Virus record (IMG/VR): IMGVR_UViG_3300009130_000014
Location: 1 to 64,000 of that record
DNA length: 64,000 bases
Strand: one strand, 5' to 3'
DNA from: a virus
Of the stretch, positions 2,542 to 8,988 are shown piece by piece. The notes beneath the pieces were generated by a model, which saw nothing but the letters and a program-made list of their open reading frames with translations, ran no database searches and was not told the DNA's origin. Made by a program: the position numbers and the translations under genes. The number at the start of each line of letters is the position of its first letter. The stretch's first letter is position 1.

Positions 2542-2812
2542 ACTTAATTAGTTTAGTGTTAGACCAAGCAGTTTCTCTAGTTGGCATAGTTCTTTCTATT
2601 GTTATTTTAGGCTTATCTCTTCTTAATGAGTCAACAAGATTTTGTATTCCATCTTTAGATATATCATCTATAGAAGGCATAGAAGAAGGTGTTATTATAG
2701 TTGAGTCTAGATCAAGAGTCGCTAACATACTTTGAATCATTTTAATAATAGCATTGGCTCCTGTATTACTAGGAGCTAACACTTCTATTTGTATTCTATT
2801 GTTCTTTTTCAT
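2525..2812 (-). CDS. hypothetical protein, 95 aa
   Basis: ORF track; overlaps both neighbours. Confidence 0.7.
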   Translation of the reverse strand: MKKNNRIQIEVLAPSNTGANAIIKMIQSMLATLDLDSTIITPSSMPSIDDISKDGIQNLVDSLRRDKPKITIERTMPTRETAWSNTKLIKYEKET

Positions 2813-3308
2813 TATTAATCATTTTTAATGCTTTTAATAATCCAGCTTCAAGAGCCTGTTCGTAGGTGTCCCACCAACTCATAATGGAAAAAGAATCTTT
2901 CTTTTCATTAAAATCCCAAGAATCCTTCTTTCTTCCTTTTTCACAATTAGTGGTTATATCCCATATGTAGGCGTATTCAGAGTCGTCTATACAAGTGTAA
3001 TGAATACATAGCTTAATCTCATGAACCTCTCTCAACCATCTTTGTAGTAATGATTGGGTTGTAACTGTATAAGCCTCAAAATACTTAGGGTTATTTTGAC
3101 AACCAAAACATCCTCCACCATTTTTAGTAAATACCAAGTCTTTCTTATTCCAGTTTTCTTTACTAGCTAAATCATATCCATCATAACCATTAGGCTCGTC
3201 TTCATTTTTATGAAATTTATCACCAATGTATGCTGTATAAGTAGGAATATCAAATCCCTTCTCCTTAGCTAACTTAGCTGTTTCAAATGATATTAGTTCT
3301 TCTTTCAT
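2796..3308 (-). CDS. hypothetical phage protein, 170 aa (ISFETAKLAKEKGF...TQSLLQRWLRE...TYEQALEAGL type)
   Basis: ORF track; motif pattern recalled from Bacteroidota phage hypothetical proteins. Confidence 0.8.
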   Translation of the reverse strand: MKEELISFETAKLAKEKGFDIPTYTAYIGDKFHKNEDEPNGYDGYDLASKENWNKKDLVFTKNGGGCFGCQNNPKYFEAYTVTTQSLLQRWLREVHEIKLCIHYTCIDDSEYAYIWDITTNCEKGRKKDSWDFNEKKDSFSIMSWWDTYEQALEAGLLKALKMINNEKEQ

Positions 3309-3488
3309 TTTAGTTTTGTTTAATGTTTAATAGATTACAGTTTAGTAAGGTATCAAAGGTTTCTCACACCTTATCAACCTTACTAATTAACTGGATACAA
3401 GGCCCTTTGGCATATTATAACTACTTATTGAGAAGTAAGTAATTAAGCCCTAACATCGTAACCTTAGTATCATATGCATCCGCCTTCG

Positions 3489-3571
3489 TAACCCAGACAT
3501 GAATCGAACATGTGACACACGTTCTGCCTTTCGACAGTCATTACGCTGCTCTACCACTGAGCTACTGGGTT
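3489..3571 (-). tRNA. tRNA-like RNA with an aberrant anticodon arm (no canonical 7-nt loop)
   Basis: Minus strand AACCCAG-TA-GCTC AGTGGTA GAGC-A-GCGT AATGA CTGTC GAAA GGCAG A ACGT-GTGTC-ACATG TTCGATT CATGT-CTGGGTT-A; perfect acceptor, D and T arms; CCA not encoded. Confidence 0.8.
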
Positions 3572-3745
3572 ATGGGCTAGGTCTTTTAAAGAGTTCCCAA
3601 CCTTTTCTCCACTAGTCTTTCCGAGTAGTCAAGAGATAACTTCCCTAGTGCCTCTTACACTGTATCCCTACTAACTAGTATTCGGAATATACACAATTTG
3701 AGCTTCATTGATAGGCTTGTGTGGAATTTGCAAAGAGTTTAATTG

Positions 3746-3997
3746 TCCCCAACAAGGTTGTAATCCTTGTAACCATACACTAAGGCACATGTATTCATTT
3801 ATACACACTTTATCTTTATCTTCGATGTTATTATACAATATGGGCATTTACGCTTGACAGTATAATAACACTCCTTAGTGTATAGTTAGTTATTAAAGCC
3901 TCTAACGTTTTAGACAATACTGAATATAATTTAATCAGCGTAAATCACTTATGCAAGCAGCTCGTTAGTGGCGATAATCCTACAATTGGATTAGGGA
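3746..3997 (-). ncRNA. putative ~250-nt structured RNA
   Basis: Nested inverted repeats 3771-3785/3873-3887 (15 bp) and 3826-3836/3860-3870 (11 bp), hairpins 3753-3769 and 3975-3993, closing helix 3746-3752/3991-3997; mismatches are G-U pairs only on the minus strand. Confidence 0.5.
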
Positions 3998-4126
3998 AAT
4001 ATTTTATATTAAGGTTTTACAAGGTTATAATAGATTGTTAATTAAGGTGAAGGTGAAGTAGGATAAAATGAATAAAAAGCTATATTAGTTATGACTTAAT
4101 AAAACTTGATGATGAAGGAGACTCTC

Positions 4127-4169
4127 GAAAAGAAGGGAAGGAGTAGTGAATACTACTCCTTAACTCCCT
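4127..4169 (-). terminator. intrinsic terminator or stable hairpin after 4175..4444
   Basis: Perfect 10-bp stem AAGGAGTAGT (4138-4147) / ACTACTCCTT (4152-4161), extendable, followed on the minus strand by CCCTTCTTTT. Confidence 0.6.
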
Positions 4170-4174
4170 GAGAA

Positions 4175-4444
4175 TCAACCCTTATAGCTTACTAACCACT
4201 TATTAGTGTAAGTATTAACTACTCCGGTATCTTGATCTACTACTTCCTTTTCGGATTCGCGTATAACCCATTGCTTAGGGTTAAAGTTAGCTAATAGTTC
4301 TTCTGCAATAGGCTCTGGTGTTTCAATAGAGAAGTAATCTCTAACTGTTACATTTCCTAATGGAGTAGATTCTACAGCATTGTACTCAATAGTAGATAAG
4401 ATAGTGTTTCTTTCAGTTTCGAATGTTCTTGTGATCTTTGTCAT
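4175..4444 (-). CDS. hypothetical protein, first gene of the leftward unit, 89 aa
   Basis: ORF track; followed by a terminator hairpin. Confidence 0.75.
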   Translation of the reverse strand: MTKITRTFETERNTILSTIEYNAVESTPLGNVTVRDYFSIETPEPIAEELLANFNPKQWVIRESEKEVVDQDTGVVNTYTNKWLVSYKG

Positions 4445-4926
4445 AATTATATTGTATAGGTTTAAGAGGGGTATACCACAACTCCTCAGTATCTAGGGGG
4501 AGGTTTGAATAGGGTGCACACCGATTTTAATCACGCATAAAATTTTTCAAAAAATTAATAATGAAAATTAGGGGGGGGATAATATAAACCACACCCATGT
4601 TTTTAAAAAGGATAATATAAGATCATATATAAATGTTATAATTATTATCACGGGATAAGTGAATAATAATTAATATTATAAAATAATAAAGTTAACCATA
4701 GATAATATAAGAAGGGATAGTAAATAAGATATGGGTGAAATCTAGCTTTACACTATCAAAAACAAAGATTTTAAGGTATTTTCCCTTTCCTCTATATAAT
4801 CACACCGAGTATATAATATACTCACACCGAGTATAAAAGTTATTCGTATGATGAAATATTTACACCAAAAGGTGTAAAGTTTATAATTTTTTTATATATT
4901 AGCATATAAATCAAAAACAATAAATT
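4445..4926. promoter_or_regulatory. divergent control region (strand switch) with ACACC repeats and hairpins
   Basis: Direct repeat TCACACCGAGTATA at 4800-4813 and 4822-4835; palindrome TTTACACC-AAAA-GGTGTAAA at 4859-4878; TATATTAG at 4895-4902 resembles the Bacteroidota -7 box TAnnTTTG. Confidence 0.6.
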
Positions 4927-5121
4927 ATGAATGTGCAAACATTGAAGGCTATCTTAAATAAGAATGTAAGTGGCCAAGCAGGAGTAAAAATCATATTTAA
5001 AAACAAAGAATATGATTTATTAAGTGTAGTTAAAGGAGCTGAATCTATCGGTATTGTAGTTAATACTGGAGAAATTGAAGAACCTGAAGTAAAAGTAAAA
5101 ACAGAAGAAGGAGATGAGTAA
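4927..5121 (+). CDS. hypothetical protein, 64 aa
   Basis: ORF track; first gene of the rightward operon. Confidence 0.7.
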   Translation: MNVQTLKAILNKNVSGQAGVKIIFKNKEYDLLSVVKGAESIGIVVNTGEIEEPEVKVKTEEGDE

Positions 5122-5413
5122 TATAGGATTTATACCACATGGAACATACTTACTAGTACAGGTTCCGAATGAGTATTATGAAGGTAAAGCTGATATTGTA
5201 GTTAATGAAGCTACAAGAAAAGCTCAAAGAAGAGAATACATTGAAAGAGGGGATAAGATGAAAGTTGCAGCAATCGGGGAAGACTGTAAATTTGTTGAAG
5301 TTAATGATTATGTAGCAATACACGCCAGAGGTATGATGGAGGTAGAGCTAGATGATTTTGATGAACCCTTCATCTTAGTAAGAGAAAGTGAGATATTAGG
5401 TAAATTCGCTTAA
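5114..5413 (+). CDS. groES: GroES/Cpn10-like co-chaperonin
   Basis: 99 aa; FIPHGTYLLV, VAAIGEDCKFVEVNDYV and ILVRESEILG match the Cpn10 pattern. Confidence 0.75.
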   Translation: MSNIGFIPHGTYLLVQVPNEYYEGKADIVVNEATRKAQRREYIERGDKMKVAAIGEDCKFVEVNDYVAIHARGMMEVELDDFDEPFILVRESEILGKFA

Positions 5414-5532
5414 TGGAAGCTTTAGAGTTTTTTGCTTACAACTTCCTCCACTTTCGTGTGGAGGGAGATACCTTATTAGTAAACGAGGGAGGAATTTGGC
5501 TCCCTGTGCAATCATTAGAAGGAACAGAATGA
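5413..5532 (+). CDS. unlisted 39-aa peptide
   Basis: MEALEFFAYNFLHFRVEGDTLLVNEGGIWLPVQSLEGTE*; coupled by TAATG upstream and ATGA downstream. Confidence 0.55.
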   Translation: MEALEFFAYNFLHFRVEGDTLLVNEGGIWLPVQSLEGTE

Positions 5533-5834
5533 ATAATTTTATAAAACTATTGAGATATCACTTCCTTAAGAGGAATGGCTTATTGATAAATATTATAGGA
5601 ATTTCTACTATCGTGTTATTATGGAATGTGTCTTTTGCAATAAATATATTTCTAGCATTAATAGGTGTGATGTTACTTGTTTTTCTCTTCGTATCGTTCA
5701 ATCAAATAGAAGATATTAAAAAAGGAGCTAAATTAGAAAAAGTAAATAAGGATAGCTTAAATACAATGTTAAAATATCCTACTACTTATCACTACGAATT
5801 AAAATATTTATATGAACTTGCAAGAAGCTTATAA
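5529..5834 (+). CDS. membrane protein with two TM segments
   Basis: Track ORF 5496..5834 restarted at ATG 5529; two hydrophobic helices. Confidence 0.7.
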   Translation: MNNFIKLLRYHFLKRNGLLINIIGISTIVLLWNVSFAINIFLALIGVMLLVFLFVSFNQIEDIKKGAKLEKVNKDSLNTMLKYPTTYHYELKYLYELARSL

Positions 5835-6081
5835 TATAACAATCAAAAAGGAATTGACAGAACAAGAATCTTTGGATTTGGTTAAATTTTATATTAAAAC
5901 TTTAAAAAATAAAAATATAGAAGCAAAAATTCCATCAACTTATATCACAAATTCTCCTGCGTCTATGTTTATTTATAGAAGAGAAATGGAGTATTTATTA
6001 AGAATGGCGCATTATGCTAGAATATTTATTAAAGCTTTATATGAAGAACCGGAGAACATTACCGTAAAAACTTATGGGTAA
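5812..6081 (+). CDS. hypothetical protein, 89 aa
   Basis: ORF track; overlaps both neighbours. Confidence 0.7.
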   Translation: MNLQEAYNITIKKELTEQESLDLVKFYIKTLKNKNIEAKIPSTYITNSPASMFIYRREMEYLLRMAHYARIFIKALYEEPENITVKTYG

Positions 6082-6523
6082 ATTACAACATATTGAAGAA
6101 GCTATAGATAAAAGATCCGGAGAGGTCATTATAACAAAAAAGACATTTGCTGTAAAGAGTAAGAATAAGCAAGAGTTTTTTATGGTATTTCTTTCAGGAC
6201 TAAATGCTATATGCGAACTTACTAGGCCTAGTGATATAAAGATATTAGCTTGTATGTGTGAAAGAGCTGAATATAACACAGGAGCAGTAAGGTTAACTTC
6301 AGAGGATAGAAAACAATTAGTAGATAAATTAAAAATAACATCTCAAGCATTTTCTAATTCGTTATCAAGATTAAAAGATACAGGATTAGTAACTGGTGAA
6401 AGAGGTATGTATGAGGTAAATCCTCAACATTTTTGGAAAGGTGAGACTAACGAAAGAGAAAGATTATTGAAAGCAAAGACAATGAATCTTTTAATAAAAT
6501 ACGACGAAGATGAAGAAAAATGA
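6074..6523 (+). CDS. RepL-like winged-helix DNA-binding protein
   Basis: HTH LVDKLKITSQAFSNSLSRLKDTGLV followed by GMYEVNPQHFWKG. Confidence 0.7.
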   Translation: MGKLQHIEEAIDKRSGEVIITKKTFAVKSKNKQEFFMVFLSGLNAICELTRPSDIKILACMCERAEYNTGAVRLTSEDRKQLVDKLKITSQAFSNSLSRLKDTGLVTGERGMYEVNPQHFWKGETNERERLLKAKTMNLLIKYDEDEEK

Positions 6524-8594: not shown

Positions 8595-8988
8595 ATATTA
8601 CACACCAGAAGCAAAAGAACTGCATATTGATTTTGAGTTTGAGTACAGTAGGAATGGAGTATGGTATGAAGAAGTAATAAACGACTTATACGATGCTTAT
8701 GATGTATGGAAAGATCATGAAGCAGGCAGACATCCTATCAGAGTCAAATACTTAGATCATGCGGATATAGAAAGCTTAGGATTTGAAATCTATGATTATG
8801 ATGATATGGATTCTTTTTCTAATGGTAATATTACGATAGAAGTAAATGGTTACACTAATGAGTTAATAGTTGAGATATGGACCAGAGCAAATACAATAGA
8901 TAAAAGTCCTGAAATGGTTTTTAAAGGTACTATCAAGAACAAAAGTGAACTTAAGAAAATATTAAAGCAGATAGGTTATGGAGGATAA
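8584..8988 (+). CDS. tandem paralog 1 (KYYTP / RVKYLD / IKNKSEL family)
   Basis: Track ORF 8518..8988; ATG 8584 aligns with the starts of the other two paralogs. Confidence 0.85.
   Translation: MKDKYYTPEAKELHIDFEFEYSRNGVWYEEVINDLYDAYDVWKDHEAGRHPIRVKYLDHADIESLGFEIYDYDDMDSFSNGNITIEVNGYTNELIVEIWTRANTIDKSPEMVFKGTIKNKSELKKILKQIGYGG

Follow-up and report, generated by a model that had tools for sequence, protein, structure and literature searches.

A tRNA-shaped gene with a hairpin in place of the anticodon loop in a marine crAss-like phage

The only tRNA-like gene of a marine crAss-like phage has a hairpin where an anticodon loop is expected, which raises the question of what use the phage makes of it. 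The phage is represented by an IMG/VR record of 89,606 bases that is estimated to be 94% complete, and the window, the whole stretch of DNA analyzed here, is its first 64 kb. The window has a G+C content of about 32%, bears very long open reading frames (ORFs) on its plus strand, and contains crAss-like terminase, portal, and major capsid genes. These genes and a short DNA match between the window and Cellulophaga phage phi18:3 point to a bacterial host, and a host from the Bacteroidota would fit the phi18:3 match. The public runs that contain the record are seawater or marine metagenomes from a single study, and no RNA run carrying this phage is listed among them. According to Rfam and ARAGORN, the gene at positions 3489-3571 is the sole tRNA-like gene of the record, with no further tRNA or tmRNA. 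DNA contigs from four runs of one marine study are identical across these positions, and the source sample may be among these runs. The usual interpretation of phage tRNA genes is that they aid codon usage or serve as copies that escape anticodon nucleases.

The gene combines an intact class I tRNA body with a lengthened anticodon arm. It lies on the minus strand, as is seen both from its sequence and from its match to the Rfam tRNA family (48.2 bits against a gathering cut-off of 29, E = 3.1e-07 for the window, model positions 1-71 of 71). Its parts are as follows.

3489-3571, minus strand: tRNA-shaped gene of 83 nt with a valine-type body (Rfam RF00005); A73 is at 3489 and CCA is not encoded.
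3565-3571 paired with 3490-3496, minus strand: acceptor stem AACCCAG/CTGGGTT, Watson-Crick in 7 of 7 pairs and retained in the constrained fold.
3548-3562, minus strand: D arm GCTC-AGTGGTA-GAGC with a 4-bp stem, read from the sequence; A14, G15, G18, G19, and A21 are present.
3519-3546, minus strand: lengthened anticodon arm, made of a GCGT/ACGT outer stem, an internal loop with AATGA opposite A, and an inner hairpin.
3524-3537, minus strand: inner hairpin CTGTC-GAAA-GGCAG; the 11 extra nt lie within it, in an ambiguous register.
3514-3518, minus strand: variable loop GTGTC, read from the sequence; G46 and C48 are present.
3497-3513, minus strand: T arm ACATG-TTCGATT-CATGT with a 5-bp stem, from the sequence and the Rfam alignment.

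From 5' to 3' on the minus strand the order is AACCCAG, UA, the D arm, A26, GCGU, AAUGA, CUGUC-GAAA-GGCAG, A, ACGU, GUGUC, the T arm, CUGGGUU, and A73. A preliminary description had claimed flawless acceptor, D, and T stems with AGTGGTA and TTCGATT loops in an otherwise intact tRNA, and it was right on each count. Outside the anticodon arm, every stem is perfectly paired. Likewise, no base is missing among those that make the tertiary contacts of a class I tRNA at their textbook positions (U8, A14, G15-C48, G18, G19, A21, C13-G22-G46, A9-A23-U12, U54, U55, C56, A58, and G53-C61). The D-arm 19-mer GTAGCTCAGTGGTAGAGCA occurs as well in ordinary tRNAs (Gly, Lys, Thr, and Arg) of many Bacteroidia genomes. 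The gene is tRNA-derived, and its ancestor was a class I tRNA of valine type (GAC).

The anticodon region measures 22 nt, while the Rfam tRNA model expects 11. Between the strands of the anticodon stem there are 18-20 nt instead of the normal 7, and the stem has 4 bp and an A-A mismatch (A31 opposite A39). A cloverleaf-constrained fold reproduces the arm as first described, with GCGT/ACGT, an internal loop, and CTGTC-GAAA-GGCAG; there is one G-U pair in GCGT/ACGT and one U-G pair in CTGTC/GGCAG. The arm folds as ((((.....(((((....))))).)))) at -6.4 kcal/mol, and the whole RNA in this fold reaches -24.1 kcal/mol; the unconstrained minimum free energy (MFE) of the whole RNA is -26.4, with z = -2.35 against shuffles. 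The GAAA-capped hairpin is present, yet taken alone it is within chance and not statistically striking, with 9% of shuffles of the inner 20 nt folding as well as the arm or better. A kink-turn in the internal loop was rejected by hand, since its register would disrupt the inner helix.

Codon pairing is not possible for the transcript as written, because C36 and position 37 are base-paired and G34 and A35 lie inside the asymmetric internal loop. The gene has a cloverleaf and exceeds the RF00005 threshold, and it lacks a 7-nt anticodon loop (Y32-U33-NNN-R37-N38) on a 5-bp stem, as had been claimed for the RNA as transcribed. ARAGORN calls no gene here at default settings. When introns are allowed, it gives a weak tRNA-Asp(GUC) with a 4-nt "intron" at 30/31, and this was rejected on its 3 of 5 stem pairs and 12-nt variable region. 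The gene matches none of the catalogued mimics, neither YrlA and tmRNA, which had been put forward for checking, nor another one: the Rfam gathering scan of the window returns only the tRNA, and the ARAGORN tmRNA search is empty. Across 3300-5150 no Rfam family other than the tRNA match is above threshold; a permissive scan beside the gene gives abiF at 23.9 (threshold 37) and salivarius-1 at 15.6 (threshold 50), both below threshold. The Rfam scans show no ribozyme of the theta or HDV-like kind on the 3' side of the tRNA (cf. PMC10879173), and this idea was rejected. Since the sole tRNA-like gene is non-decoding as written, the phage may put the tRNA shape to another use, in RNA processing, as a stable RNA, or as a decoy.

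A decoding tRNA can still be read in the gene. Removal of 11 nt in any of several registers, enumerated from the sequence, gives a 7-nt loop with U33-GAC and A73, which is a tRNA-Val(GAC). Excision of CTGTCGAAAGG or TGTCGAAAGGC leaves the loop AUGACAG and excision of GTCGAAAGGCA leaves AUGACUG, and the anticodon is GAC either way. The preliminary description had offered a non-decoding mimic and, as the alternative, tRNA-Val(GAC) with an 11-nt insertion. Both descriptions fit the sequence, which does not separate them decisively.

The extra bases might be an 11-nt intron at or near 37/38 that a host or phage activity excises to yield a decoding tRNA. On its 5' side the loop retains N32-U33-GAC, the extra bases begin at 36-38, where archaeal and eukaryotic tRNA introns lie, and the end of the insert is paired with C36 and position 37, an arrangement also seen in pre-tRNAs. 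In Lak megaphages, which infect Prevotella and so also have a Bacteroidota host, tRNA introns have been reported that are "enigmatic" and highly conserved (PMC6784885; 10.1101/356790). However, the arm, with its 5x1 internal loop and a 5-bp helix free of interruptions, lacks the 3-nt bulges 4 bp apart of a bulge-helix-bulge. A length of 11 nt excludes a group I intron, whose ribozyme core (P3-P9) usually needs at least 200 nt, and the Rfam scans contain no match to an intron family. After splicing, the loop would carry A32, G38, and, in one register, U37. Profile searches of the phage record find no RtcB, Rnl2-type ligase, tRNA splicing endonuclease, or CCA-adding enzyme (splicing and ligase profiles PF01974, PF01139, PF09414, and PF09511); the Rnl1-type ligase profile (PF09511) also finds nothing in the record, but it is silent in control genomes too and so says little. 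To our knowledge, tRNA splicing endonucleases are absent from bacteria.

The design of the gene is widespread, and its other occurrences bear on the intron in both directions. A scan of IMG/VR for the exact D arm and T loop of the window around an over-long middle finds at least 120 loci (L106-L225). Among the matches listed, the acceptor and T stems are intact in 96 of 120 (82 distinct), and about 40 have a 5-bp anticodon stem closing 12-42 nt together with a normal variable loop. Some of those listed look intron-like and have a canonical CTGTAG or CTTGTA at the start of the over-long loop; such canonical openings, found in many listed matches with the same D arm, speak for an intron in the window as well. 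Others lack an anticodon signature. GNRA or UNCG caps are weakly enriched among the matches listed (4 of 79, with 1.2 expected, P = 0.04). On the other side, at least one intron-like match listed is a giant-virus (GVMAG) contig, and part of the IMG/VR set probably comes from viruses that infect eukaryotes. The same pattern finds at least 120 loci in cellular genomes (L307-L426), and among the matches listed these are mostly tRNAs that bear introns and belong to DPANN archaea; bacterial cases are scattered among Bacteroides, Cryomorphaceae, Saccharibacteria, and Moraxella. Overall it is unlikely that the insert is an excised intron, and protein-based removal of a genuine mini-intron in a bacterium or phage, with neither a ribozyme nor a bulge-helix-bulge, is distinctly improbable.

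Two Bacteroidia loci have a repeated motif associated with tRNA-shaped genes. The motif GGTCAA-N7-NTTACTTC is repeated 4 times in L434 (positions 1298-1589, genome G178) and 6 times in L436 (917-1609, G146), on one strand. The repeats fall both within tRNA-shaped genes and in the gaps separating them; the genes (GGGGCAG...CTGCYCC) combine class I D and T arms with 60-70-nt middles, and default ARAGORN does not call them.

The tRNA-like gene sits among small ORFs in an ORF-poor part of the leftward early region. Its neighbors are as follows.

2796-3308, minus strand: ORF of 170 aa belonging to PHROG 12005 (E = 8.7e-25), the first gene downstream on the same strand.
3309-3488, minus strand: spacer of 180 nt with two hairpins (MFE -41.2 kcal/mol, z = -2.45) and an inverted repeat at 3342-3360/3368-3386.
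3572-4137, minus strand: upstream stretch of 566 nt, devoid of same-strand ORFs of at least 60 aa and moderately structured (MFE -124.4 kcal/mol, z = -2.12).
4138-4161, minus strand: terminator-like hairpin after the 89-aa ORF, with a 10-bp stem followed by CCCTTCTTTT.
4175-4444, minus strand: ORF of 89 aa, upstream of the tRNA-like gene on the same strand.

Upstream of the gene the minus strand has no sigma-70-like site and no Bacteroidota -7 box (TAnnTTTG), and this lack of a host-type promoter fits release of the tRNA-like RNA by processing. Positions 3813-3877, 65 nt of the long upstream hairpin, recur with 3 mismatches and unrelated flanks in other contigs from runs X1, X2, and X4; they could represent a small element that is shared or mobile. 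The protein encoded downstream has no Pfam family and no PDB sequence match. Its AF2 model has a pLDDT of 90.3, and residues 83-170 are predicted to form a helix, three strands, and a helix, an arrangement loosely like a double-stranded RNA-binding domain (dsRBD; Z 4-5.3). The model matches T7 Gp1.2, dsRBDs, and hibernation factors at Z 4-5.7, which is below the meaningful level, and the last helix is acidic instead of lysine-rich, so no claim of RNA binding is made. The closest homologs of the protein are 70% and 62% identical, and the second of these (L226) has no tRNA-like gene upstream. Farther left, the 38 nt that open a 255-aa ORF (2504-2541) are 97% identical to positions 1533-1570 of the related locus L018, despite terminases that are 59% identical.

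Related crAss-like phages also carry tRNA-shaped genes that could not decode in the usual way. Abnormal anticodon arms with intact acceptor, D, and T arms are found in L018A, L018B, L027, L023, L279, L291, L253, L297, and L295. We refer to them as anticodon-abnormal tRNA look-alikes of crAss-like phages, which is a working class and not a published family. L018 has two tRNA-like genes, one with an 8-nt loop without U33 and one of leucine type with 98 nt, while G005 (92% complete) has a single leucine-type look-alike of 104 nt. Every tRNA-like gene of these two is abnormal. The one with the 8-nt anticodon loop AGTCCAGC is of class I (2486-2558 of L018, minus strand), and ARAGORN reports it as tRNA-??? 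with a 4-base anticodon, tcca.

The gene order of the window is preserved in L027, which has a phosphoesterase 77% identical to that of the window. Leftward it has a homolog of the 89-aa ORF, a non-coding stretch, a tRNA look-alike, and a PHROG-12005-like gene, and on the other side of the locus there are GroES-like, RepL-like, and phosphoesterase genes as in the window. The look-alike in this slot is of leucine type, is 104 nt long, is unrelated to that of the window, and lies 10 nt upstream of the homolog of the 170-aa ORF. A RAGATH-1 hammerhead ribozyme scores just above its cut-off (56.5 bits) at 2950-3020 of L027, minus strand, in the counterpart of window positions 3572-4174; the window has no RAGATH-1 match.

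Leucine-type look-alikes of 86-104 nt occur in four of the related loci, namely L018 (1585-1682, minus strand), L027 (450-553, minus strand), L279 (1659-1744, plus strand), and L023 (1501-1604, minus strand). The four have in common the D arm, the T arm, and a 3' trailer starting with ACAA, and their middles of 40-55 nt cannot be aligned. By our own count about 47 of 52 top-half bases are identical between L018B and L027. The shared arms and trailer around unalignable middles show directly that selection in this phage group acts on the top half and not on the anticodon region. An ORF starts about 10-40 nt after each of the four. However, normal tRNAs of related loci are often equally close to the next ORF, so this distance does not separate them from the abnormal ones.

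Genes of the PHROG-12005 family are preceded by abnormal look-alikes in at least five phage lineages. A look-alike lies directly upstream of a PHROG-12005-like gene at a distance of 35 nt in L291, 140 nt in L253, and 20 nt in L266/L301, and the normal tRNAs in these loci precede other ORFs. The association gives a Fisher value of about 0.03-0.09 by our own estimate, for loci that were chosen for that gene, and thus a link between the look-alikes and the family is suggested weakly. L291 also has a phage tmRNA (1404-1792, plus strand, 65.9 bits), which is 1.6 kb upstream of the abnormal 90-nt look-alike that precedes its PHROG-12005-like gene.

The gene itself has not been found in any other phage or in a cell. 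Exact-pattern scans with its 5' half, its 3' half, and its insert find nothing in IMG/VR, an exact-pattern scan of a genome set of 185,579 prokaryote species likewise gives zero, and within the window the insert hairpin is present once. An ortholog is absent from 8 terminase-related, 80 phosphoesterase-related, and 90 PHROG-12005-related loci, and BLASTN of 3309-6073 against all fetched related loci gives no match left of about 5080. BLAST against cultured phages gives generic D-arm matches and one weak tRNA-Val match (E = 0.2); against 301 Bacteroidia genomes nearly all matches are to the D arm, a few of them extending into the anticodon stem. By these searches, the copy at 3489-3571 is without a known ortholog.

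A copy of this kind could be a recently inactivated tRNA-Val(GAC) pseudogene, in which one 11-nt insertion has disrupted the anticodon loop and the remainder is still undecayed. Restoration of the U33-GAC loop by removal of 11 nt agrees with this, as does a hairpin stability within chance in a gene that has no insert-bearing ortholog in IMG/VR, the genome set, or the related loci. A unique recent insertion mutant beside relatives with a normal tRNA had been named in the preliminary description as the contrary case, and the single copy and the normal tRNA-Val(GAC) of more distant relatives agree with it. tRNA-Val(GAC) also appears to be a usual cargo of the group. An ordinary 72-nt copy is the only tRNA in the fetched stretch of each of three more distant relatives (L046, L059, and L064), and such a tRNA would have been useful to the phage, where GUU and GUC make up 533 of 1293 valine codons. 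However, these copies lie in another position and have no sequence similarity to the gene of the window. They are located at 2963-3034 (L046), 6062-6133 (L059), and 8875-8946 (L064), all on the minus strand; their anticodon loop is TCGACAC, in which position 33 is C and not U, and CCA is encoded. The insert, moreover, is not a tandem duplication, its U-G wobble keeps it from being a perfect DNA palindrome, and there is no damage at any other position. The genomic context argues against simple decay, in that differing abnormal look-alikes would not be expected from independent accidents, and they are found both in the same slot (L027) and elsewhere (L018, L023, L253, L291, and L297). A pseudogene is somewhat unlikely.

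We tentatively prefer a non-decoding look-alike whose top half is the reason for its retention, with a probable role as an RNase P/Z processing mark or a stable RNA, although we put its chances somewhat short of even. A kept non-decoding RNA is favored by the tRNA-shaped genes with abnormal arms in the relatives, including the one that occupies the corresponding slot of L027. Also in its favor are the full-length tRNA match with its perfect stems, the status of the gene as the only tRNA-like one of the record, the exclusively abnormal tRNA-like genes of L018 and G005, and the intact acceptor and T stems in 96 of the 120 IMG/VR matches listed. The gene would be transcribed within a leftward early transcript, and the RNA would take the L-shape of a tRNA. 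Host RNase P would cut its 5' end, and RNase Z or exonucleases would cut its 3' end. The cuts would part the structured upstream RNA from an mRNA beginning with the 170-aa gene, and the product would be a stable small RNA that possibly receives CCA. The intact upper half, made up of the acceptor stem, the T arm, and the D-arm elbow, would be the part being kept. A processing signal for adjacent RNAs had been among the uses first proposed, and its fit with the genes of the related phages speaks for it, while the role itself is put forward here as a candidate. Several points count against a kept processing mark or stable RNA. No ortholog of the gene was found, and it is a single 11-nt event away from a working tRNA-Val(GAC) in which U33-GAC is readable, as would be expected of a fresh mutation. 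The stability of the hairpin is within that of shuffles, GNRA or UNCG caps are enriched just marginally among similar elements, the link with the PHROG-12005 family is weak, and proximity to an ORF is shared by normal tRNAs. In addition, the 180-nt spacer to the ORF is longer here than at the other look-alike loci.

A decoy or sponge might use the same top half to divert a host factor that acts on the body or the 3' end of tRNAs, such as an acceptor-end toxin or a tRNA-sensing system. The determinants of the L-shape are intact, the gene is in the early region with small ORFs around it, and conservation of the top half with free middles, as in the leucine-type family, suits a decoy as well as a processing mark. 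However, the context has no defense or counter-defense genes, and no data favor a decoy over processing. The decoy for anticodon nucleases suggested in the preliminary description is unlikely, since these enzymes, the best-known tRNA-directed defenses, need the anticodon loop, which is absent here. A decoy of any kind is very unlikely.

The case for another use of the tRNA shape is strengthened by relatives that keep different non-decoding look-alikes in the same place. If the insert were a true mini-intron, it would imply an undescribed removal of short inserts by a splicing route new to bacteria, on which the only tRNA of the phage would depend. Standard annotation misses such genes, and this may affect counts of phage tRNAs and the puzzle of missing suppressors; surveys of crAss-like phages mention that very divergent suppressor tRNAs may evade detection (PMC7886860). 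The single copy described here settles nothing alone, but it is a well-defined, small, and easily synthesized example.

Known systems resemble the gene in parts. A class I tRNA-Val(GAC) (RF00005) shares the cloverleaf except for the loop, the tertiary-contact bases, A73, and a readable U33-GAC, and it differs in having a 7-nt loop where the phage gene has 18-20 nt in the form of a GAAA-capped helix. Plant-mitochondrial t-elements and the mascRNA of MALAT1 are tRNA-shaped and non-decoding, are cut by RNase P and RNase Z, and define the ends of neighboring RNAs. The mechanism proposed here would be the same by analogy, although those examples are eukaryotic or organellar; no report of a phage tRNA-like processing signal was found in the literature. 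RNA1 and RNA2 of phage T5 (NC_005859 30501-30644 and 32959-33083) are annotated as "tRNA-like stable RNA with unknown functions" and are likewise tRNA-related and non-decoding. They are 125-144 nt long, lie within a large cluster of working tRNAs, and fall below the Rfam tRNA threshold, while the gene of the window has 83 nt, scores 48 bits, and is solitary. Archaeal and eukaryotic pre-tRNAs with introns at 37/38 are alike in the position of the insert and in the partial pairing of the anticodon with it, and they differ in that the phage gene has no bulge-helix-bulge and has a bacterial host. A length of 11 nt is within the known range of plant nuclear tRNA introns. The nearest published parallel is found in Lak megaphages, where Devoto et al. 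2019 describe tRNAs with "enigmatic introns" (PMC6784885; 10.1101/356790). Both have Bacteroidota hosts, probably so in the present case, and over-long genes that bacterial settings leave unclassified, with inserts in the anticodon loop and no known splicing route. The Lak phages, however, have about 30 tRNAs, where this phage has one tRNA-like gene, and their inserts are reported to be conserved across cohorts and, in one case, to stand out in an alignment with insert-free copies (PMC6784885; 10.1101/356790), where the present insert is known from a single copy.
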